NCBI GenBank assembly: GCA_022813865.1
Contig: JALDZX010000029.1
Span: 124,001 to 188,000, forward strand
Reading direction: 5' to 3'
Length of the DNA: 64,000 nucleotides
Source: Xylographa opegraphella
Lineage: Eukaryota
In this document: in pieces, positions 6,330 to 59,857 of the stretch
Layout: each line of letters begins with the position of its first letter
Numbering within the stretch: position 1 is the first letter of the stretch
Notes under the pieces: model-generated
Database searches by the model: none
What the model saw: only the letters and a program-made list of their open reading frames with translations
Told to the model about the DNA's origin: nothing
Position numbers and translations under genes: made by a program

Positions 6330-7937
6330 TTACTCAGCCATAGGCTCCATCATAATTTCAGCAGACTCTTTCCCCTCGTCCCTCCGTTCCAGTGCTCCCA
6401 CAGCGGTTAACAGGGGCTCGATTGCCGTAGTAGCTATCGTCGGCACTGAAGAATGAGCCATTGTCTCAAGCCCGGACATAACACATTCCCCAGCGGACTC
6501 AACAATGCCCTTAGCGGACTCAAAGCCAGTGGCCACCGCACTCGGAACTGGCTGCATCAAAGACTCCACCGTCGCAGGCGTGGCATTCCTTCCCGTTGAC
6601 AAGAATAACACCACCATACTAAGCAGCGCGATGATCAGGTTCTTCCGCTCTCGCATCACCAGTCTTAGGTAATTGCGAAGCAGAACCCACAATTCGACGT
6701 CCTGGCAATCCCGCCTGGGCCTCGAGAAGCTCTGCCGGAGTATCTTTGGGCTTTCCTCGAAGCCGTCCACATATGCCTGGGCATCTTCACCATATATCTC
6801 CCGTATCCGGTCCGCGTCGATATTGCCCACCCCATGGATGGGCTCCGGGCTCAGATGGGCGTCGTATCCCGGCTCGCCCAAGCCCCTAAGCTCTTCCTCC
6901 TCCCTCCGAGCCTCCAATTGCCGCCTCAGCCCGTCTTCAATCCATGGCTGCACTTCCACATCGACTCTCTCCATCTCCCTCCACGCTGCACCCCAAGCAC
7001 CAGCGCGCATGAGCCCGTTCGCCGCATACACCTTGACATCCCACCGCTTCGTTCCCGTTCCACTCCCCATCCGCCCATCGCGTATCCTCCTACCACAATC
7101 TTCACATATGTCCTCATCCGTCTCACTCTCATCATCATCCTCCTCCACCTCTCCCTCCTCCAAATGGAAATGCCCGCACTTGAGTATTCTGGGGACCTTC
7201 AGCTCTAAGCTTTCCAGCAGCCGCTCCTCCAATAGATCATAATCTTCCCTCGGATGCGGTATCAGGATCCCGCGTTCTTGTACCGTTGCCGTAATTTTCT
7301 CCCCCAGCAGTTTCCACCCCTCCAATATCTCACCGGGGAGCACCGCCTCCATCACTTCCCGTGAGTAGGGTAACCCAAATGGTAGGACAGTCACATGCAG
7401 CAGCACGAGCGGGTGCTCTTTCCGAACCTTCTCCTTCCGCACGCCGCTCATCCGCGACGGGGAGCGCACAGAGTGACTTGATCGGGGCGTACTATTCCTC
7501 GTTGGCGTACTGAAGCGGGAGTCTTGCGCTTGAAGCTCCTGCTGCCGGTGGCCCGAGCGATTGATCACGAATGGCGGCGGTGTTGTTTCGAGTTGAACCG
7601 CTCGTACCGAGGAAGGGTGTCGGAAAGGAAAGATGGTCTTAAGAGGCGTGTAGGGAGAGGGGGGACGCTGGGCCGCTGCATTGTAGGAGGGTACGCGCGA
7701 GGACGCGGCAAGGGAGGAGATGTCATCGTCGGAGGTGTGCGGTGAGGAGTGGTGGGAATCGTGGTGTGTCGGGTTGTCAAAGACGGTGTCGTCGGGCCCG
7801 CTGGAGTTGTGAGAGTGTGGTTCAGAATCGGAACACTCGTCCTCGATACTTGCCAGCAGAGGGTTTTTCGGTTGTGAGGACGCGGTTGGGGAATGCGCTT
7901 GGTTGCTATGGGTGTCTGCGAAGTCTATCTGGTCCAT
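6330..7937 (-). CDS. Conserved fungal hypothetical protein (family often annotated pathway-specific nitrogen regulator), one C-terminal TM segment
   Basis: Intronless long ORF with first ATG at 7937. Conserved core PLVLLHVTVLP...RGILIPHPREDYDLLEERLLESLEL..PRILKCGHF...CxxCG...WDVKVYAANGLMRAGAW..AWREMERVDVE. Hydrophobic LIIALLSMVVLFLS near the C-terminus. Confidence 0.75.
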   Translation of the reverse strand: MDQIDFADTHSNQAHSPTASSQPKNPLLASIEDECSDSEPHSHNSSGPDDTVFDNPTHHDSHHSSPHTSDDDISSLAASSRVPSYNAAAQRPPSPYTPLKTIFPFRHPSSVRAVQLETTPPPFVINRSGHRQQELQAQDSRFSTPTRNSTPRSSHSVRSPSRMSGVRKEKVRKEHPLVLLHVTVLPFGLPYSREVMEAVLPGEILEGWKLLGEKITATVQERGILIPHPREDYDLLEERLLESLELKVPRILKCGHFHLEEGEVEEDDDESETDEDICEDCGRRIRDGRMGSGTGTKRWDVKVYAANGLMRAGAWGAAWREMERVDVEVQPWIEDGLRRQLEARREEEELRGLGEPGYDAHLSPEPIHGVGNIDADRIREIYGEDAQAYVDGFEESPKILRQSFSRPRRDCQDVELWVLLRNYLRLVMRERKNLIIALLSMVVLFLSTGRNATPATVESLMQPVPSAVATGFESAKGIVESAGECVMSGLETMAHSSVPTIATTAIEPLLTAVGALERRDEGKESAEIMMEPMAE

Positions 7938-8780
7938 GTTTGGCAGCGATACCTGGGAATTGGAGTACGCCACAACAGTAGGAAATGGTTCAAAGTAGAG
8001 TTTGCTGGTTATAGTGTAGCCGTCGCGTGAGGTTATAACCTCTGGACTACACTGCAATCAGAGCGCCCTCAGAGACCTGATCCAAAAGCGAAAGCAAACA
8101 GGATTAGACTTTAGGCCCGTCTCCATGGGTAACGGCTAGTTTAGAATACAGCTAGGATCATTCGCTAAGCTCTTGCGCTGTCACTATTTCTTCGCGACCA
8201 TCAATATCTGAAATTATGACTATAGAAATGTATACTCTAGAGTTTCGTCTCAGATCTATTCAGCATGATGTTGTCAGTCAATATGTCTGGCATTTTACTC
8301 ATGTGGCTTTCGAAATACTACACATCACTACCTCGGATGTTCTGTTTGATCACGAAAGATCTTGCTTCATGCTGCTTCTCTGATTATGTTCAATGTTTAT
8401 GATTCTCAGCGATAATACTCACGTTGATATGGCTTTTTGAATCTTCTTTGAGTTTCACGAATTTTCGCGTGTTTTCAAGGCCAGTTATGCTCGTGTCGAG
8501 TAAAGAGTAGACACTGGCCTTATGTCGTCTCCGATACTAGTGAAGGCTGGCCGAATATTCAGCGTGAAGCTTGGTACAGATGCGAGCCACGTTTCGGCGA
8601 GATTCCGGAAGCATTCCAAGTCTATTTCCCCAGTAAACATACTGGCCACCCCACAACTTCCCCACAACCCTTTCTCCGTTTTCAGTCCGATCTTTTTTCC
8701 GTCTGAAGTCGCAATTTGAATCTCGATGTTTCGTCGTCTTTGTTTGTCGCTTGCATAGTGAGCACTTGATCTCGTCGAGA

Positions 8781-11707
8781 ATGCGATCGTCCATACTTTC
8801 ACGCATACTAGGTGTCGCTCTATGTCTTACCTGGCAATTCTTGGCCGCCAACGCAGTATTTGACGCCTGTCGAAACAAGTATCGTGTGGTAACTACGGTC
8901 CTCATCTACGAGAATTCAGTCTATATCAACACAGATGTATTATCAAATACCACTTTCAAGGTAAATCCTGGAATGACTATCACGGTGGACAACGCGCCGA
9001 CGAGCTTCGACATTACCACTATATATATCTCGAAAGTCTCAAACGTCGACACTTTATATGTTTCTCCGGCACATCCAACCAGTCTGATCGAGGGCGCTCC
9101 GTTCACTCTACTTGTCGCAGGTCGCTCAAAATCCCACCGTCGTCGAAATTCGGGTGGTACTTATCTAGGCTTCAATGGAACCCTTAGCACATCATGCTCA
9201 TCCGCAAGCACGTACACATTAAGCGACGGTCAGCTTTATGAGCAGAACAATGGTGCCACTTTAGAGTTCTCTGCTGCGAGAGACATTGGCTACGAGTACT
9301 TTGTGCCAACTGCTTCACCTGCTTCTATCACCACGACTTTCTCCCTTGGAGAAGGAGGCTCTTTGCAGTGGGTAAACGATGCTTTCTTCAATGGCAACGC
9401 CTGTTCTGTGCTCTGAGCGATGGAACTATAATAGCAGTCTTTTCACAAGACGCTGAACCATCCGGCTGCGACTTTGTTGACATTACCATTGGTGATATTT
9501 CAAGCTGTGTTCCTCAAGCAGGACCTAGCGGTTAGTATACTGGAATGATCAAAGGATTATGGAGACGACGTTGATACTCGTTACAGGACCTCAGGGAACT
9601 TCGGGTCTGAGTGGTCAGTGGCCTCCAGAAGAGAGTTCAAGGGATATCTGCTGATATGATTCTAGGAATGCCGGGACCTTCTGGGCCGTAAATATCACCT
9701 CTCAAGCAATGAATCCTCAGTCTGATATGTCAACAGATCCGGTCCAACAGGTCCACAAGGTGTTTCTGGATTGAGCGGTTAGTTTAGAAGATATCGATTT
9801 TTATTCCCGAGTGGAGACACTAACAATGGAAAAGGGATACCAGGGCCATCTGGGCCGTAAGATACCTGCGGACCGAAATTATAATTTCTAACATGCGATA
9901 GATCTGGTCCTACTGGACCGCAAGGTGTTTCTGGACTTAGCGGTGAATAGTCCCAAGGGTGATTCAGCAGTCGTTAGCTTTACTCATGAAGATCCAGGAA
10001 TACCGGGGCCATCGGGTCCATCTGGACCGTGAGTTATTCATACAGCAACCTTTACTGCTGTTGACTTTATATAGTTCCGGTGCATCAGGCTTATCGGGAG
10101 CGTGAGTATTCGAGCACAGAGATGTGATATTACGCTGATGCATTTAGATCCGGCGCATCGGGGATATCTGGTCCTACAGGGTAGGTGTCTCTTGCGTTTA
10201 TATTAGTCTTGCATGATAATCGTATAATAACCTGGCACAGGTCGGTGGGTCCTTCTGGCCCTTCTGGCCCTTCTGGCCCTTCCGGAGCATCTGGAGCATC
10301 TGGACTTTCAGGGAATGTGGGGCCGTCAGGACCTTCGGGGCCTTCGGGGCCGTCGGGGTCGTCGGGGCCATCGGGACCGACAGGTTCATCTGGACTTGTT
10401 GGCTCGACCGGGCCCACTGGACCGATCGGGCCGTCTGGACCATCAGGACCATCAGAACCCACTGGAGTGTCTGGACTATCAGGCCTAGCTGGCTCGACTG
10501 GACCAAGCGGACCATCAGGGCCATTGGGGCCGTCAGGGCCTTCGGGGCCGTCGGGACCATCTGGCCCATCAGGACCATCAGGGCCATCGGGGCCATCGGG
10601 GCCATCGGGACCATCGGGGTCGACAGGTCCATCGGGGTCGACAGGTCCATCAGGACCATCCGGGGTTTCCGGGATATCGGGTATGGCTGGCTCGATTGGC
10701 CCAACTGGGTTAGTTTTCTCCTAACCTTTTATATATTGCTCGAGATCGGGGATTGACTTGGGGTAGGCCGGCTGGACCAAGTGGTCAGTAGATACTTATT
10801 GTTAACAAAGGAGATATTGATATCCGCTTCAGGACCGACAGGAGCTACGGGTCCTTCTGGTGCGTCTGGTGTCGCTGGAGCTCTTGGGCCAACCGGGTTT
10901 GTTTTCCTGAACGTTTCCATATATTGGTAGAGCCGCGGCGCTGACTGATGACAGACCGGCCGGACCGAGTGGTCAGTAGTCACTGGATCCATCATAATAG
11001 AAGTATTAATATTAGCTTCAGGACCAACAGGACCGACGGGACCGACAGGCCCGACAGGACCGACAGGACCGACAGGACCTTCTGGTGCATCCGGTATAGC
11101 CGGAGCGGTAGGGCCAACTGGGTTCGTTCCTGATGTTCTTGCATATTGTTTACGATCACATAACTAACCTTGAACTAGGCCTACTGGACCAAGTGGTCAG
11201 TAGACGTCTCTCCTCATACTGGTTATGATAGCATTGATATCTCCGTTAGGTCCAACGGGTCCAACAGGTCCAAGTGGCGCCAGCGGCCAGTCTCATTAGC
11301 CTTGAATGAGATTTCAACACGAGCACTGACACAGGGAACAGGCGCTGCAGGCTCTCGCGGCTTGCAAGGAATCGATTACGCTTACATTGGCTGCTTTCTA
11401 TCAAAGCGGGACGACTACGACAACGACGGGGAAAGTGCTCTCGACTTTCGAAGCCGTTTACACGGGAAGCGTCAACACGCAATGCGCCTCGATCTGTCTC
11501 GCCGGCGGCTTTACGTTCTTTGGTGTCGTCAATAACGGTACGACGAACGGAGACTGCTACTGCGGGAACGCGTTGAACTACGTTACCGTCACATTGCTGG
11601 GCACGGGTCAGGCGCCGGACAACAATTGCTATCTGTGCAATTACGGCTATGGGGAGTGTGGAAATTACACTTCGTCGACGATCGCGATCTATGCGCGGTC
11701 GTTCTGA
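8781..11707 (+). CDS. Secreted collagen-like protein: signal peptide + N-terminal domain + ~112 Gly-X-Y triplets + C-terminal WSC domain; 17 exons; two 1-bp frameshifts as assembled (possible pseudogene)
   Basis: Exons: 8781-9530, 9587-9613, 9666-9687, 9737-9777, 9835-9856, 9902-9942, 9998-10028, 10075-10101, 10148-10180, 10241-10708, 10767-10783, 10833-10896, 10955-10971, 11022-11121, 11179-11195, 11250-11285, 11342-11707. All junctions keep the Gly-X-Y register. 8-Cys WSC pattern YIGCF..CASIC..GFTFFGV..DCYCGN..CYLC..ECG..IAIY. Frameshifts at ~9400 and ~11396. Confidence 0.85.
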
Positions 11708-11808
11708 GGCGGTGCTTCCGGGTCTGGTGTCTTGCTTTATTTCACTCCTTCAGCGATACCCCATTTCCTTGGTCTTGGCATAGAGCGGGTAATTCTCGCG
11801 TTGGTGGT

Positions 11809-11875
11809 CTCGGTCACTGTTTCGGTCACTGTTTCGGTCACTGTTTCGGTCACTGTTTCGGTCACTATTTCGGAC
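11809..11875. repeat. Tandem minisatellite, 12-bp unit TTCGGTCACTGT x ~5.5
   Basis: Read directly; lies ~100 bp downstream of the collagen-like gene stop codon. Confidence 0.95.
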
Positions 11876-15532: not shown

Positions 15533-17686
15533 CTACCCGAAAAGGACTTCTCGACCCATCTGCTGCGCGACGTCGCGCCAGCCGATCTCCGCCTCCCCAG
15601 CGTCCACCCGCCGCCAGAGCTCCTCACACACCTCCCATCCCGTCACGATGTTGCTCATACCCTGCCTGCTCTCGAGGTGGCGGAAGACCGTGCGCGCGAC
15701 TTCCCGGTCCGGCTCCTCGATCGCGTGCGTCGCCGCGGTGAAGAGCGGCCACAGCAAGGCGGCCATCGGACCGGAGAAGATGACGACGCGGAGGCAGTGC
15801 TGCAGCGCCTGCTTGGCCGAGGCCTGGATCTTGGGCGAGGATCGGGAGTGCGACAGGATGTCGTGGTAGAGGTGCACGAGCGCCGCTTGCTTGTAGGCGT
15901 CGGCGTTGTTCAGCACGGATTGCAAGCGGGAGTCGTCGGCGGGGCTGTCGACAGCGATCATGGACGTGGGGATTTTTGGGCTCCATTGGTGCAGACCGAG
16001 CTCGATGTTGGCCACGCTGGAGTCGAAGTCGGCCCGCATCGACGTGGTCTTGTCGTGACCGGGGTTGGCCATCTCTTCCCGTTCGAGGTTGCGCTTCACG
16101 TCGACCAAGCCGGCGAGGCGGTGGATCATCGGCCACAGATCGGTGATCAAACCGAAGAGAGTGTCGACGCCGGACATGGCCGATGTTTCGCGGTGGTTCA
16201 GGAGATCATTCGTCGTCGGTGCGAGGATCGTGCCGGACATGGGAGAGGTGGCAAAGGAAAGCGCAGAGGAAACGTCAAAATATCGGAAAGCCTATAGTCG
16301 AGAGATTAGTTTTGCATGTCCGGAGCTCTCTCCCCACGTTTCCGGAAGGCGGGCATACTCGTTCTAAGAAAGTGCTCGTGGTGCCGCGCCGGGCCCTCCG
16401 CTCCCGCATGATGGACAACGCACCGCGAAGATGACTGCTCAAGACCGTCGACGAACCACTCCGGACCAGCTGTGCGACCCGTCAGCGCGATTGCCGTCAG
16501 GACCGGGGGGGCAGCGCGCGCGCGCACCACTCACCTCGTAGTACAACAGCAAGGTAATGACCGCCAACACCTCGTCCCGGTTGCCGTCGTCCTTATGCGC
16601 TATAAGATTCGCCAGGCCCTGCAAAGCCTTCGAATGCAAATCCAGCGCCCTCTCCTCCACCGGCAAGCCACGATGCTCGAGGTGGGCCGTTGAAATAGCG
16701 TAGATCGCGTTGAGGAGGGGCGGGCTCTTGGGCGCCATGGGCAAAACCAATCGCCGGAATGGATTCCCAGAATCCTCCTTGAACACAATCAGATGGCTGA
16801 GAACATTGCAGAAGTGATCCAGCAAACCTCTGCGCGACTCCCGCGTGGTAAAGTCAGAAAATGCGGGCACCGCAAAGTCGTAGGGCGAGCCGCCGGAGGT
16901 GGGCGAGATGAAGGCGCTGGTGGGGTCGGGGTAGGAGCTGCTGCGGGAGAGGGCCGAGGTGGGCACGAACATGTCCTGCGTCGTCTGGACGTCGGCGCCG
17001 TAGACGTCCTTGGCGTACATGTCCAGGGCGCCCATGTGCAGCGGCTTGATGTCCGACAGCAGCTCGGCCGTCGTGCGCGGGAAGGCCTCCAGCGGGTCGA
17101 AGGGCGGCAGCGGGGAATGCATATCGAGAATGGTGTCACTCCCGCAACTGGAGGCCGAGTCGCTGAAGACCGAGTGCGCACTGTGAACCTCCCAATTCTC
17201 GGCAATGGCGGGCAGCGGAGGGGTGGGCGAGGTGGACATGATGGACGAGCCCGAGCCGGAGCTCGAATCCTGGCGCAGCGCCTGGAGCCGGTCGCGGAAG
17301 TCGAGGTGCTGGCCGGGCATGGTGGTGGGCGGACGCATCATGAAATGCTCGGGGTTGGACACCGTCCGTCTCCGCTTCCGGGGCTTCACCGGCTCGTACT
17401 CGCACTTGAGGCCCCGATCCATGCATCGGTCACACTGGGGACGCTCCTCGTTGCACTTCTTCTTCTTTTCCTTGCTGGCGGCCGGTCAGACATTGATGCT
17501 TCCACACCGTCACTCCCGTTCGGTGGAGAAGGCTTACCAGTGCACACAGCCTGATGCCAGTCAGTCATCCTCGTTCTGATCCCGATTACCATACCGGAGT
17601 GGGAGGGGGAGAAAGGAATCAAGCTTACCGGCGCGAGAGCGACGCTTGGGAGTCTTTGCAGGAACGGGACGGTGGTACAGCAACAT
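15533..17686 (-). CDS. Zn(II)2Cys6 transcription factor with C-terminal fungal-specific TF domain (Fungal_trans_2-type)
   Basis: Splices to [50 protein letters not shown] via a 13-nt exon (17538-17550). Downstream it reads HFCNVLSHLIVF..NPFRRLVLPMA..LLNAIYAIS..AFRYFDV..LLWPLFTAA..W. An upstream in-frame ATG near 17757 is possible. Confidence 0.9.
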
Positions 17687-34843: not shown

Positions 34844-36604
34844 ATGAATCAGCCTAAAAGACTTATAGTTGCGTGTGATGGTCAGTGTATCTTACCTGCC
34901 AATATAAAAACTTCAGCAACTAACATCAGTATTTCACACAAGGCACTTGGGAGGTAAGCCAGCTCATGACATATCATGAACTTCCGGCATTGAAACCCTG
35001 ACAAGAGCATCTTTTCAGAATAGTGACGATGGCTTCGTCAGAGACAATTACTGGCCATGGAGTACCAGTGGTCACCTAGCAGATCCCACCAATGTCACTC
35101 GGTTCTGCCGGGCTTTGATGTCCCACAGTCCTCACAAAGACATCCAACAGATCGTCTACTATCAAGCTGGACTTGGCTCTGCAAATAACTGGTACGATCA
35201 GATTATTGGCGGAGGTGGGTTGCGTGACTATTTATTGGTGTGAGGGCAATGGCTGATTCAGCTTGCGGGCATTTTAAGCTACTGGTAATGGTATTTCTGA
35301 ACTCGTCCGGGAAGCCTACGGCTTCCTGTGTCTTAATTACGCGCCTGGTGATGAGATTTTCCTTGTTGGTTTCTCCCGCGGCGCTTTTACTGCCCGAACC
35401 ATCTCGGGCCTTATCGCAGACCTCGGGCTGCTCACTAGAACCGGCATGATGAGTTTCTATCCTATCTTTAAAGACTGGGAAAATCAAGTAAAGAAAGAAT
35501 ATGTCAGCCCGTGGCCGAACCTACCTTTTCCTAAGAAACCTCCATTCCATGACCCGCACTACACGAAGGAGCTCGAAAGGGTAAGTGTAACGATATGCTC
35601 AAGAGAATTAGCCACTGACGGTTGTCACAGCTTGATATGACGAGACTGCGGATCCCCATCAAAGCAGTCGGAGTTTGGGACACCGTTGGTATGGAAACTG
35701 TGGCCATTGCGAAACTTGAACTTGTCGTTGATGTGGGGTTTTAGGTTCATTAGGCATCCCGGATATCGGGCTTTGGCCTAAAGGTCCTTCGGAGTACGCT
35801 TTTATCAATACGGTAGTCTCTCCCAACGTGGAGAACGCCTTCCACGCCCTCGCCCTCGATGAACATCGCAAGCCCTTCTCGCCCACCATCTGGGAGAAAC
35901 CCGAGGGGCAGCAGTTGCCGAACAAGCTAGTTCAGTGCTGGTTCCCGGGCGTGCACGCAAACGTCGGCGGTGGCTATCCAGACACGGCCACCGCAGACAT
36001 CACGCTGGCTTGGATGATGTCGCAGCTCGACGAGTTCCTCGATTTCGATCCGGAGTACATTGTCTGGCAGCGCGAGCTCAACGTCAAGTACTACCAGGAC
36101 GAGAAACCGCCTGCGGCGGTCAGGCCCTGGGCTATGGGTGAGGTGTACCACACCTACAAGGGAATTGCATACCTGGGTAAGTCACCGTTCATTCAACATT
36201 GCTTGCATTGCTCATTCTCATCTGGATCAGGAGGCTCACAAACACGTACGCCCGGTCAGTATCACCCCACCGACGGCGTGACAGGGGACCCGAAACCTCG
36301 TTACCTCCGAGACACCAGAGAACATATCCACCCATCCGTGCGCGTTCGCCTTGCATGTGGCGGCAAAGGCGCCGAGGACCAAGGCTTCTACACTCCGGAA
36401 GCGCTGAAGAAGTTCAAGCTGCTTGCGCCTGGCGAGGTGACCGACAAGACGGCAGCCGTGCAGGATCCCTACGAACACCGCTACCGGTGGGTGCTCCGCT
36501 CGCGTGATAGGGTAGTCATTTTACCCGAAAGTGAGCTTGGAGACGTAGAGTTAAAGCTGCTGCGCATGTCCCCCGAGGCCGAAAAGATGGTCGAGCATGC
36601 TTAG
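34844..36604 (+). CDS. DUF2235 (Tle1-like phospholipase fold) alpha/beta hydrolase
   Basis: KRLIVACDGTW, PTNVTR, QIVYYQAGLG, GDEIFLVGFSRGAFTAR, GVWDTVGSLG, AFHALALDEHR, QCWFPGVHANVGGG; includes an 11-nt exon at 34943-34953. Confidence 0.9.
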
Positions 36605-55813: not shown

Positions 55814-57265
55814 TTATTTCTTTTTTCGAATGACTTCAAGAGTGTCAAGTAGCCAGTCACCAATGTTGGATCCTGCAATATCCACCGGTAAATCGCGAGA
55901 CTCGGCCCTTTTCTGCAATGCCCATTCCACAAGCTCGGTGTCGTCGCAGTCGATGTCAGTACTGGCATCGCCCCCGAGCAAAGCCTGGAGCGTCTTGAGG
56001 TTGGGCGTCTTCTCCAAGACGGCAATCTTCAGATGCTTGGTCGAAGACACCACACCTACAGTGGCGGACTCGAACCGGATTTTACTAGCCGGCATCCTCC
56101 ACGAAGCATGCGGATTTGTGAGGACTTCCAAAGTTAGTTTCCCCGTCTCTATATCCTCGCGGCATTGTTGGACATGGTTGAGTCGAGCCTCCTTGAGAAC
56201 ATCGGATTCCCATGTTCCCACTGTTCGGAGTATAGAGATTGCATTACTATTGTCTTCTCTAATCGCGTCTTCAAAACCTTGCAGTGCAACCTCGCCGCTT
56301 GTGCTACCGAGCCAGTCCAGCTTAGCTTCTGCATCGAGGAGCAATCTCAGGAAGTAGCCACGTTCATTGGTCCAGGGGCCGTGAAGTAACTTTTCTGGGA
56401 TTTGGCAATCTTTCATGGAGCCGGCTGAGAACATGGAATGAATGATACGCGGATATTTTTCGTGTTTATACAGAAAGTAATCCTTTGGCCAGAATTTGTT
56501 TTCCGGATCTGCTACCCACGGTGTAAAAACCTCCATGCAGCTCCCTTCATTATCCAAGACTATTGAGAATGCAACCCCTTCATAGTCGGTTCCGGCAAAT
56601 ACTATATCTCGAGATGAGCTGTCAGGGGGTGGAGGAAAATCTCCTGTAGATGGGTAACGAAGCGGGTCCAACTTCATCGATATTCGATGGCTCAAGCTGT
56701 AGTAATTATCGAAGGCTTCAGTAAGTTTCGCCATATTACCGCGATATACGTCTTGAGCTACCGCTCCAGAGTATTTCTGAAGAACCCGAATGGCGAGTCG
56801 TAGGAAATGAGTCTTTTGACAATGCTGAAGCAAATTATACGTCAACCACTTCTGGCGTAGCAAGCCTGACTGGAATTCAGCGTAAAGGAGAGGCTCATGC
56901 TCCGCGTGATCAGCAAAGGCATGTATTACGAGCTCTCTCCTCAAATGGGGTGACGCCAGGACAGATCCGAGATGTAAGGATGACAACGGGAGATTGAGGT
57001 TTATGGATTGGAGGAAAATTGTTTGGAGCAACTCCGTCGGCAGCTTCTCTAAGGCGGAAAGCTGATGGGGATATGTCGCCACCGTATTGGCTGCACCGTG
57101 ATCATCTGTTATCACTGACTGAGTTGCAAGACGCTTGCTGTTGCGCGGCCGGCCGGTACGAGGTTTGGGTTCGTCTTTAGCTGACGATGAAAATTCCGCA
57201 TGTTTTTGTTTCTTGCGCGACTGATCGCGCTTGTTCTTACCACGGACTCGTATTGGGGTTAACAT
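55814..57265 (-). CDS. Hypothetical protein with F-box-like motif
   Basis: ~480-codon intronless ORF from the first ATG at 57265. Basic N-terminus, LSALEKLPTELLQTIFLQSINLNLP (F-box-like), and later IPEKLLHGPWT..FLRLLL. Confidence 0.7.
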   Translation of the reverse strand: MLTPIRVRGKNKRDQSRKKQKHAEFSSSAKDEPKPRTGRPRNSKRLATQSVITDDHGAANTVATYPHQLSALEKLPTELLQTIFLQSINLNLPLSSLHLGSVLASPHLRRELVIHAFADHAEHEPLLYAEFQSGLLRQKWLTYNLLQHCQKTHFLRLAIRVLQKYSGAVAQDVYRGNMAKLTEAFDNYYSLSHRISMKLDPLRYPSTGDFPPPPDSSSRDIVFAGTDYEGVAFSIVLDNEGSCMEVFTPWVADPENKFWPKDYFLYKHEKYPRIIHSMFSAGSMKDCQIPEKLLHGPWTNERGYFLRLLLDAEAKLDWLGSTSGEVALQGFEDAIREDNSNAISILRTVGTWESDVLKEARLNHVQQCREDIETGKLTLEVLTNPHASWRMPASKIRFESATVGVVSSTKHLKIAVLEKTPNLKTLQALLGGDASTDIDCDDTELVEWALQKRAESRDLPVDIAGSNIGDWLLDTLEVIRKKK

Positions 57266-59857
57266 TGGTAACGCCCTGCTGAATGGAGGTGCGTCTGCCG
57301 ATGTGCGTTTCCACGTTGCCACGACCTCGGGTTCTATTTTCCAATTATGAGACAGCAAGGAGGGCTAGTAGTCAAAGAGCACCAATAATATTAGACGATT
57401 TAGGCAGGTAAAGGGATGCGGAAAGGTCCTGAATTTAAGGTTGACATTCCTAGGTGCGCAAACCTCGTTAAGCGAGCCCTAGCTAAGGAGCTAAGCTCAG
57501 CTAAAGTATGGTACCGACACACTAAGGTACATGACTCGGGTCTCGTCAAAATGATCCTGTCTCCAAGGCATTCGGTACCTACCTTATAATGTGGTCTGCG
57601 GACTTGTTTTCTTGATACTGTACAACCTTTCACCACAGTGACACTCCTCTGCGTTGGTTCAAGCCGTCACTGCATGGTAATTTATCGCATAGTACTTCAC
57701 TAGCATATTGTATGTGAACTTTTATGCTTCATGCCTAAATAATATGTAGAATAGCTTTATGCGCCTTCATGCATTGTTAAGTGCGAATGTATCTTCCGTC
57801 CACACACCACCTTTGCAATTTCGGCCATTTTGTCACCATCTTTGCTCTATAGTGGGACATTGTGTCTGCACATCTTTGGGGGTTTATCATGAGGATTGTC
57901 TCATCACGTAATGTGCTGCTCTTATCTTTCAACAAGCATATAATACCAGGACCGATCGTCAACGCGTCCTGGATATCTGGCCTTCACGTGACGTTCGTCT
58001 TGGATGTACCTCCGTAATGTGGACTTCCTTCGTGCACCAGCTACTGGCGGTAAAGAGCTTTGTGCTTCTCGTCTGAGCCTCTGCTGGGTAGAATGAACGA
58101 ATTGCCTTCAAATGCTCACATAACCCGAGACCATTGTCTCTGTCTCTATTTGTAGCCGGACCAGCAATCTTTCCATTAAGGGTTCCTGGATATCTTGAAA
58201 AGTACCCTGGGGAACGGGCCATCATCATAGAGCTCGGAGCAGGCACATGGTAGCCTTGATCACTTGCGTGCGCTCTACTAGCCACTTCGATGTAAGCCGC
58301 AGGAAGCCGTGGTAGCAGTATCGCAGTAACGATTTAGGTGTCAGACCTTTGAACCATGGGTCATGTACATCCTGAGAACCTTGGCAAACGTGTCTAAAAG
58401 GTACACACTTTTTCGAGCTGGCTATTACGAACGGCAATACCGATCCCCTACCCAGACGCGATGGAAACCTTGTGTTGCGGCAGCAGATGTGGCTCGAAGC
58501 TAAGTGGCTCGGTGACCACAACATCAAGATCATTCGTGACCACACCCACTGCTACTACAAGATCAAACTCCAGGCTCAAGAGGTAATGCTGTTATTGTGA
58601 CTTGTGGCTGGATGGTAAACATCGTTTGCACGTTTCGCAATGTACTTGCATTGTTAGTTAAGGAGAAAAGCTAAATAGCTATCGATATCAAGATCTCGTC
58701 GCTGTGTTCCAGACGTATCTAACTTGTACATAGAAAGGACTGACACGAATGACCATTACAAACGCCTGTTGGCGCCATCTTCTGCAATACCATCCTGCAT
58801 TCGAACCGAAATTTAATTTTGACTCGGTCACGGCACTTTGTTTGTCGTTTTACATCATCTGCATGTAAAAGCATTCAGGATAGCTATTGTCAACAGAACA
58901 AGTACAGTAACAACCAAGCAGTAACTGATCAAAAGGATACCTTCGTCTCCAAGCCCTCCCTGGTCCAGTCTTATCTAGATCCCGCAAATATCAGACTTTT
59001 CGCATATCCTCCAAGTGACAGCTTCCGCCACCTTCATATGTATTCCACAGGCCGGCAGACGCCCAGACCGATGGTGCGATTCGATACGTAATCCAACAAC
59101 TCCCTTCCTCCTTGGCGTGCTTGGTATCGCTCCCTCAACCTCCAGCAGCGCGTCTCACCTCCGTATCCGGCTAACGAAGATCACCAATCGGCACTCGCAT
59201 GACTTCACCAGCCACATCCACGCCACACGTCTCGGCACGATCGGCAGCTGATTTCCCCCATCCAGCTCAAGAGCAACGCCACTGCGCCGGGATCTTCACG
59301 CTTTAACCCGGACAGGAATAAACGTCCTGTGGCGCAAGCTCTTAGCAATCTCCCTTCCCAGTTCCCAGCTCAGCGCAGCCCTGCCGGCAGCACATCGTGA
59401 TATGAAGCGCGCGCTGTGATTCGATGCGCGAAAAGCTCAATCCGTGGCTCGGTGGTCGAATGCGGATGGGAGTATCACGCTGCGATGAAGTCATAAGCGC
59501 TTGGGATGCTGAGACAGGAGGTATTTAGATGGCTGGAGAGCGCTGCGCTTTCTGGAGAAATACCACGCACAAGTATTATTATTTATTGTCTGTTTGAGCA
59601 TCTGCGATCCAGACCTCTAGGCACTTTTAGCTCTGCCGCCCGTTACACACTGCTTGCTACGTCATTTCTAATTTCCACCGCAAAGAAAAAATAAGTAGGG
59701 CGCGCCGGCCTTTTTGCTTATCCACATCAACATCGTCTCCACAAAAACAGAGCATCAGCCGCAACGATCCACCAAAACCGAAACTCTTAGGTACACTTTG
59801 CGAGCCTACCCTCAAAGTCTCCAAATACAAGACGCGTAAAGCGCACCACCAGCAATC

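Follow-up and report, generated by a model that had tools for sequence, protein, structure and literature searches.

A probable pseudogene in Xylographa opegraphella representing a functionally undescribed fungal family of collagen proteins with DUF7908 and WSC-like domains

In the collectins, C1q and ficolins of animals, a collagen stalk is joined to a C-terminal globular head that trimerises, and the Bacillus BclA protein carries GPT repeats with glycosylated threonines and a C-terminal trimeric head. Among fungal proteins, the secreted Metarhizium MCL1 contains a collagen domain and a glycosylphosphatidylinositol (GPI) anchor, whereas WSC3 of Serendipita indica is built of three tandem WSC domains and has no collagen. 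MCL1 is described as involved in immune evasion (PMC7776561), and WSC3 binds long β-1,3-glucans (PMC7816849). Linden and King (2021, bioRxiv) report collagen domains for 73 of 169 fungal families and count 508 fungal collagens; the term WSC is absent from that text. Here, a locus is described from a 64,000-nucleotide stretch of Xylographa opegraphella DNA (assembly GCA_022813865.1, contig JALDZX010000029.1, positions 124,001 to 188,000; hereafter the window, in which all positions are counted), where a first-pass annotation had proposed a 17-exon collagen gene with a WSC lectin tip. Its accompanying statement that collagen-like proteins are uncommon in fungi does not agree with the family count given above, and in Ascomycota such domains are no rarity. 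The locus is almost certainly a genuine member, with a 17-exon structure, of a family that is conserved, catalogued in public proteomes and functionally undescribed, and this particular copy is best explained as a young pseudogene or a null allele.

Gene structure and domain composition

The coding span runs on the forward strand from an ATG at position 8781 to a stop codon at 11705–11707 and is predicted to be split into 17 exons by 16 introns of 45–60 nucleotides (nt) each, with twelve exons (2–9, 11, 13, 15 and 16) measuring only 17–41 nt (Table 1). The model was obtained by listing the plausible donors and picking for each the acceptor that left the frame open and kept the Gly register. 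Fifteen of the introns have GT-AG termini, with GTNNGT-type donors and CTRAY-like branch sites 8–12 nt ahead of the AG, and the last one is a GC-AG intron, with the donor at 11286 reading GCCAGT compared to GTCAGT in three sister introns, and the acceptor AG at 11341. This is the only junction that yields 112 in-register triplets running into YAYIGCF, as in the homologues. All exon junctions are predicted from DNA alone, which weighs against the model; the sequence runs X2 and X3 contain just 33–36-nt matches with 3–6 mismatches within the repeat and are not evidence of anything.

Spliced together, the segment from 9521 to 11376 amounts to 1008 nt or 112 Gly-X-Y triplets, of which 111 begin with Gly and one with Glu (triplet 53, EPT), and the collagen runs straight into the YAYIGCF of the C-terminal domain. 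The chance of 16 introns all restoring the Gly register is ~3^-16 by plain arithmetic, with the Gly residues themselves not yet counted. The X position is occupied by Pro in 67 of the 112 triplets and the Y position by Ser in 64, by Thr in 24 and by Pro in only three, and charged residues across the whole rod are limited to one Asp, one Glu and one Arg, with no Lys. Exon 10 alone matches the Pfam Collagen family (PF01391) with 82.7 bits (E 1.5e-23, threshold 27.2). This exon is a 9-nt periodic repeat with 27 copies in register. The collagen exon region is open in several frames and on both strands (10130–10756, open reading frames (ORFs) of 176–196 amino acids), as is expected for a 9-nt periodicity, and these ORFs do not count as evidence for antisense genes. 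A search of the PDB with a profile of the full-length alignment returned mostly collagens, from which nothing was learned about the heads.

The intron phases are 1 and 2 and the exon lengths do not follow multiples of 9, a pattern unlike the 45/54-nt exons of animal fibrillar collagens. In the 3′ part of the array, three modules, each consisting of an intron, a 17-nt exon, another intron and a longer exon, can be aligned with one another, introns included, at a mean column identity of 67%, and the exon-intron modules of the 5′ part are likewise alignable with their introns at 65%. Since the introns align together with the exons, the micro-exon array must have expanded through tandem duplication of exon-intron units.

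The N-terminal part begins with a putative signal peptide and a pro-region that ends at a basic, Kex2-like site, the Arg of which is shared by all of 8 sequences in one comparison and by at least 90% of 59 sequences in another. Pfam identifies the following domain as DUF7908, with amino acids 105–207 matching profile positions 3–101 (80.5 bits, threshold 27) and the remaining positions 102–130 matched in the next reading frame (27.1 bits). Structurally, the region was examined using an AlphaFold2 model of the homologue P0003, calculated with a 59-sequence alignment to a mean predicted local distance difference test score (pLDDT) of 78.8. The model consists of a signal helix at residues 3–23, a two-strand module of 20-residue β-strands forming a hairpin (residues 35–94), a low-confidence linker that contains the basic site, and a compact β domain at about residues 129–245. 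When compared with 48,161 chains in VIA-align, 34 chains reach a Z-score of at least 8, the best with Z 9.4 over 126 aligned residues at a root-mean-square deviation (rmsd) of 3.4 Å. Residues from about 96 to 247 match β-trefoil proteins at Z 9.4–7.7 over 106–138 aligned residues, and nearly all entries in the list are ricin-type or fungal lectins, clostridial HA and Hc subdomains and other toxin binding domains, FGF/IL-1 proteins, or Kunitz inhibitors and mycocypins, most of them with a β-trefoil fold. The DUF7908 domain thus models as a β-trefoil, which is a common lectin fold. A Foldseek search with the N-terminal P0003 model gave no match at E≤1e-3, which counts against the assignment. A single LQW is visible in the N-terminal sequence, QxW being a motif of ricin-B-like lectins.

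The best Foldseek match of the same model is the lysenin pore (E 4.2e-3, template modelling score 0.28, rmsd 23 Å), and lysenin is also found by VIA-align against residues 35–247 (window positions 8880–9520) with Z 8.4 and an rmsd of 11.3 Å. A lysenin-like arrangement, in which a long β-hairpin module is followed by a trefoil, is a weak lead only.

The C-terminal domain contains eight Cys residues, the number also found in WSC domains, and the eight Cys columns are conserved across 13 sequences. The protein ends with TIAIYARSF right after the Cys-rich domain, and by eye neither a hydrophobic tail nor a GPI signal is present. In the last exon, Pfam WSC (PF01822) matches with 20.2 bits over profile positions 10–60 of 82, and in all 11 of the 11 homologues that contain the C-terminal domain the Pfam match there is likewise WSC, at 15.3–27.0 bits. 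In the ESM Atlas, WSC clusters make up 27 of the 30 named-cluster matches, with scores up to 0.91 that are uncalibrated for protein parts. Against a WSC assignment stand the Pfam gathering threshold of 27.8, which none of these scores attains, and the poor AlphaFold2 model of the domain (pLDDT 45.6). Because of the sub-threshold matches in all homologues, the conserved Cys residues and the predominance of WSC among the language-model neighbours, the domain is described here as WSC-like and sub-threshold.

Much of the first-pass annotation is reproduced by this analysis. Splicing returned its 17 exons, twelve exons of 17–41 nt, 112 triplets over 1008 nt and one Glu in place of Gly, and the HRRR site, the eight Cys residues and the lack of a tail are all found in the sequence, with the basic site also conserved in the homologues. 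The continuous register holds for all 112 triplets, although it depends on the GC donor of the last intron, on which the annotation had been silent. A Pfam scan, which it had proposed as a check, recovers the collagen and additionally DUF7908, with WSC remaining sub-threshold. The WSC lectin tip is accordingly retained as an eight-Cys WSC-like domain, and with a β-trefoil at the N-terminal head, lectin-like heads are probably present at both ends and not only at one.

Frameshifts and the status of this copy

Two single-base differences from all homologues interrupt the two globular domains. The first, in DUF7908, brings a TGA at 9414–9416 into the ATG frame, so that as sequenced the frame encodes a truncated product of 211 residues. 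At this point the nearest homologues run uninterrupted through FFNGNALFCA, and in tblastn with P0003 and P0153 the frame changes exactly between FFNGNA and LFCA. An intron bypassing this frameshift was considered and rejected; it would delete invariant core residues, and the sole GT...AG candidate (about 9372–9437) leads to a stop. The second frameshift lies in the C-terminal domain, downstream of the first Cys and upstream of the other seven, and places YAYIGCF and YQSGTTT in different frames. In all 12 of the 12 homologues with this domain, the corresponding motif Y.[YFW].GC[FY], mostly YLGC[FY], continues without interruption into the rest of the domain.

A contig derived from the reads of run X1 (word depth 163) spans 8700–11800 as a single unbroken segment and shows neither a difference nor a gap over these 3101 bases. 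Other ORFs in the window are unbroken (747, 630, 575, 516 and 386 amino acids; three with strong Pfam matches), and a seeming break in a poly(A) polymerase gene turned out to be an ordinary 48-nt intron. Given the presence of both indels in the X1 contig and the intact ORFs elsewhere, the frameshifts are probably real. The frame-corrected protein of the first-pass annotation hides two 1-nt frameshifts that are probably genuine, and the copy as sequenced cannot make the protein.

An alternative is that the gene is intact and functional and that the deposited sequence is wrong at both frameshifts, through single-base changes in short runs of C or T. Both indels indeed fall in short homopolymers (GCC/CTG read as GCCTG, and TGCTT(T)C), and the remaining gene is pristine: beyond the indels, the Gly-to-Glu change and the GC donor there is no decay, 111 of 112 Gly residues and 16 good introns are in place, no in-frame stops occur, and both globular domains share 73–80% identity with orthologues, all of which fits sequence errors too. 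X1, the sole matching read set, may moreover be the source of the assembly itself, in which case its contig excludes an assembler slip and not a systematic read error, and the library type is unrecorded. While these points weigh against true frameshifts, runs of 2–3 bases are not the usual sites of error, the X1 contig was built separately and is identical, the long ORFs in other parts of the window are unbroken, and it would be a coincidence for two errors to fall within some 1.1 kb of one gene, in coding sequence that is not repetitive. Sequence error is on balance unlikely, and the preferred interpretation is a pseudogene or null allele, of recent origin since the gene shows no other decay.

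It is also conceivable that the locus still yields altered products, namely a secreted 211-residue fragment comprising the pro-region and a truncated β-trefoil, and a 3′ frame that passes via a GT donor at 11290 and an AG at 11334 into most of the WSC-like domain. In favour of this, 211 codons starting at the ATG are open, signal peptide included, and with the alternative 3′ junction the frame is open to the natural stop with eight Cys residues. The truncation, however, loses invariant core residues of DUF7908 (A209, F211, C212 and following), and with the alternative junction an out-of-frame read, which is not seen in any homologue, takes the place of the conserved YAYIGCF strand and of the final five triplets. 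The donor of this junction, GTCTCA, is poor, and only 4 nt separate the branch site from the AG, compared to 8–12 nt in the other 15 introns, and on these grounds the alternative last intron was ruled out, leaving altered products a very improbable outcome. Finally, the periodic and multiply open exon 10 might suggest that there is no gene at all and that the Gly-X-Y pattern is a by-product of a simple 9-nt repeat. This is refuted by the 16 introns that restore one and the same register, by the flanking domains with strong Pfam and homologue support, and by the colinearity of the product with full-length proteins of two fungal classes, and its probability is negligible. A probably inactivated but otherwise genuine family member remains the interpretation followed below.

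Relatives, predicted assembly and surroundings

When 1.84 billion representatives were searched by phmmer for relatives of the N-terminal 211 residues, 192 matches were obtained at E≤1e-3, 68 at 1e-10 and six at 1e-30. Among the best 150 of the 192 relatives, DUF7908 is found in 127, and the other 23, mostly short pieces matching the pro-region, have no Pfam match; Collagen is added in 17, WSC in one and GLEYA in two. By simple counting, at least four consecutive Gly-X-Y triplets are present in 32 of 152 stored relatives, and these Collagen, WSC and Gly-X-Y counts are lower bounds, many entries being fragments or mis-called models. In the precomputed Pfam lists of 26 relatives, Collagen is given for 17 and also WSC for four. 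The two relatives with GLEYA, P0064 and P0124, carry it C-terminally, one of them along with PA14, in place of the collagen and WSC-like parts, so that the predicted β-trefoil is combined with different adhesin or lectin modules.

Full-length proteins with DUF7908, Collagen and a WSC-like domain, all annotated as hypothetical, are found in Lambiella, Elasticomyces, Friedmanniomyces and Cladosporium, with Elasticomyces elasticus P0162–P0164, Friedmanniomyces endolithicus P0019 and Cladosporium fusiforme P0167 as examples. Lambiella insularis P0153 is 73% identical in the C-terminal domain and Xylographa trunciseda P0001 is 80% identical in the N-terminal part, the model of the latter stopping inside the collagen and comprising DUF7908 and collagen only. 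Further named relatives come from Alectoria fallacina, Hortaea werneckii and Saxophila tyrrhenica; those of Friedmanniomyces, Elasticomyces, Cladosporium, Hortaea and Saxophila are annotated as either "hypothetical" or "DUF7908 domain-containing". X. trunciseda and L. insularis belong to the Lecanoromycetes (Xylographaceae) and F. endolithicus is a Dothideomycete, and the remaining genera fall into the same two classes.

The conceptual product of about 695 residues, in which each break is filled with an X, can be aligned from end to end with P0155 (29–494) and P0019 (42–620). It has the three domains and their order in common with the annotated relatives, as well as the basic site, the eight Cys residues and the C-terminal end, and differs from them in the two frameshifts and in its collagen region, which exceeds that of the nearest annotated models in length. 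The public models P0003, P0004 and P0001 are truncated or read into introns, with P0003 and P0004 leaving the frame just past the first triplets. The out-of-frame text of P0003 parallels exons 2 and 3 of the window, which suggests that the same micro-exons exist in that species. A metagenome scan gave three short, distant loci with 35–50% identity among 187 pattern matches, none of them an orthologous locus. In one of these (contig L001, 971–1391, 35% identity), the Gly-X-Y pattern leaves and re-enters the frame, consistent with introns in the collagen of other lineages.

In the literature searched, which did not extend to subscription journals and bioRxiv supplements, no paper was found on DUF7908 or on a fungal combination of collagen and WSC; among the papers listed, those on collagen triple helices and lichens are unrelated, and those on Friedmanniomyces and rock-inhabiting fungi do not mention collagen. 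The first-pass annotation had not recognised the architecture as described; no characterised example was found here either, although the architecture is present among the hypothetical proteins of public Lecanoromycetes and Dothideomycetes proteomes.

The assembly was modelled with three copies of P0041 residues 36–326, which gave a predicted assembly score of 0.78 compared to 0.00 for the best of three controls; of 30 proteins solved as same-chain pairs, 21 attain the mark used for such scores, and of 23 solved as single chains none does. Contact agreement between the runs is at least 63%, with a partner pLDDT of 70 or more. The collagen (170–219) and the C-terminal domain (248–326) make up the confident interface, with the β-trefoil outside of it. 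A trimeric collagen rod in the intact members is accordingly rather likely. Certain points weigh against it: a homologue was modelled, without an alignment, the calibration concerns two copies and not three, and a triple helix is recallable from solved collagens. Whether either head binds glycans is judged evenly balanced, and glycan binding, glycosylation and Kex2 cleavage are steps that we only infer.

An intact member consists, in this order, of a signal peptide, a pro-region with the conserved dibasic site, the DUF7908 β-trefoil, a Gly-Pro-Ser/Thr collagen and the eight-Cys WSC-like domain. After secretion, a Kex2-type protease would cleave the chain at the basic site, and a homotrimer would form, nucleated by the C-terminal heads. 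With a collagen rise of 0.286 nm per residue, the 336 residues would extend to a rod of about 96 nm. Prolyl 4-hydroxylase acts on Pro in the Y position, which is Pro in just 3 of 112 triplets, and the rod would thus have to be stable without hydroxyproline, probably with help from O-glycosylation of the 88 Ser and Thr residues in Y, for which the glycosylated GPT repeats of BclA and the glycosylated Thr of Riftia cuticle collagen provide precedents. Polysaccharide binding at one or both ends would make the molecule a matrix cross-linker or an adhesin. The full proposal, in which the intact members are ~100-nm homotrimeric, double-headed collagen lectins with three β-trefoil heads at one end, a trimeric WSC-like head at the other and an O-glycosylated helix, cross-link the polysaccharide matrix by which hyphae of lichen-forming and rock-inhabiting ascomycetes are glued together or to algae or rock, and have evolved independently of the animal collagenous lectins, is tentative and less likely than not.

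If true, fungi would own collagen-stalked lectins in which heads of the β-trefoil and WSC-like types are combined with a Gly-Pro-Ser/Thr helix free of hydroxyproline, a counterpart of the animal collagenous lectins that has been largely hidden from annotation by micro-exons. Such genes are easily missed when the collagen is spread over exons down to 17 nt, and for several relatives the public gene model is cut short or extends into introns. The named sources are lichen-forming Lecanoromycetes and stress-tolerant Dothideomycetes, whose matrix is central to symbiosis and desiccation tolerance and the proteins of which are almost unknown. As the copy described here is probably inactive, the function would be better studied in an intact relative.

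About 100 nt past the stop codon, in the presumed 3′ untranslated region or terminator region, a 12-nt tandem repeat TCGGTCACTGTT is present in 5.3 copies with 98% matches (11810–11873). Three uninterrupted ORFs on the reverse strand, at 692–2932, 6333–8057 and 55817–57364 (747, 575 and 516 amino acids), have no Pfam match at E≤1e-4, and the first two flank the collagen gene on its upstream side. About 4 kb downstream and on the opposite strand, a Zn2Cys6 transcription factor (Zn_clus and Fungal_trans_2) is encoded at 15536–17485, with no link to the collagen gene shown. A two-exon gene at 35278–36601 on the forward strand matches the Tle1-like phospholipase catalytic domain of the type VI secretion system (PF09994; 89 and 95.9 bits), a family found in fungi too.

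Table 1 Positions of the exons, domains and frameshifts of the collagen gene in the window
Feature	Position	Strand	Description	Evidence
Start codon and signal peptide	8781..8855	+	about amino acids 1–25; cleavage site judged by eye	read from sequence
Pro-region	8856..9143	+	long β-hairpins, ending in HRRR (about 9132–9143)	strands 35–54 and 75–94 in P0003 model
DUF7908 (PF25485) domain	9093..9490	+	predicted β-trefoil fold, broken by frameshift 1	Pfam and P0003 model
Frameshift 1 (probable)	9401..9402	+	one base missing compared to all homologues examined (FFNGNA/LFCAL)	Pfam, homologue alignment, tblastn
Frameshift 2 (probable)	11395..11398	+	one extra base compared to all homologues (YAYIGCF/YQSG)	homologue alignment
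Exon 1	8781..9530	+	750 nt; collagen register starts at 9521	
Exon 2	9587..9613	+	27 nt	
Exon 3	9666..9687	+	22 nt	
Exon 4	9737..9777	+	41 nt; repeat D3, 84% identical to exon 6	
Exon 5	9835..9856	+	22 nt	
Exon 6	9902..9942	+	41 nt	
Exon 7	9998..10028	+	31 nt	
Exon 8	10075..10101	+	27 nt	
Exon 9	10148..10180	+	33 nt	
Exon 10	10241..10708	+	468 nt; main collagen exon; contains the sole Gly-to-Glu triplet	
Exon 11	10767..10783	+	17 nt	
Exon 12	10833..10896	+	64 nt	
Exon 13	10955..10971	+	17 nt	
Exon 14	11022..11121	+	100 nt	
Exon 15	11179..11195	+	17 nt	
Exon 16	11250..11285	+	36 nt; followed by the GC-AG intron 11286–11341	
Exon 17	11342..11707	+	366 nt; 35 nt of collagen end, WSC-like domain (11377–11704), stop codon	

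Comparison with known systems

The likeness to the collectins, C1q and ficolins lies in the collagen stalk and the C-terminal globular head that would trimerise. The collectin-like trimer of the first-pass annotation is in this respect supported by the prediction for P0041, in which the chains associate via the collagen and the C-terminal heads, but the comparison does not extend to the parts: in the Pfam scan there is no C-type lectin carbohydrate recognition domain and no C1q or fibrinogen domain, and a helical, coiled-coil neck is likewise absent. A second globular domain is instead located N-terminally, and Pro occupies the X and not the Y position, so that the hydroxyproline chemistry would not apply. 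BclA is matched by the collagen profile (1wck_A, E 7.6e-8), but in contrast to BclA and other bacterial collagen-like proteins, the window gene is eukaryotic, intron-rich and equipped with other head domains, and no homology is seen beyond the repeat. Like MCL1, the encoded protein is fungal, of the secreted type and contains a collagen domain, and it differs in the lack of a hydrophobic C-terminal tail and in the presence of two globular domains. The similarity to WSC3 is confined to the Cys-rich WSC-type domain, of which a single divergent copy is present per chain instead of three in tandem, and which would presumably become trivalent through trimerisation.

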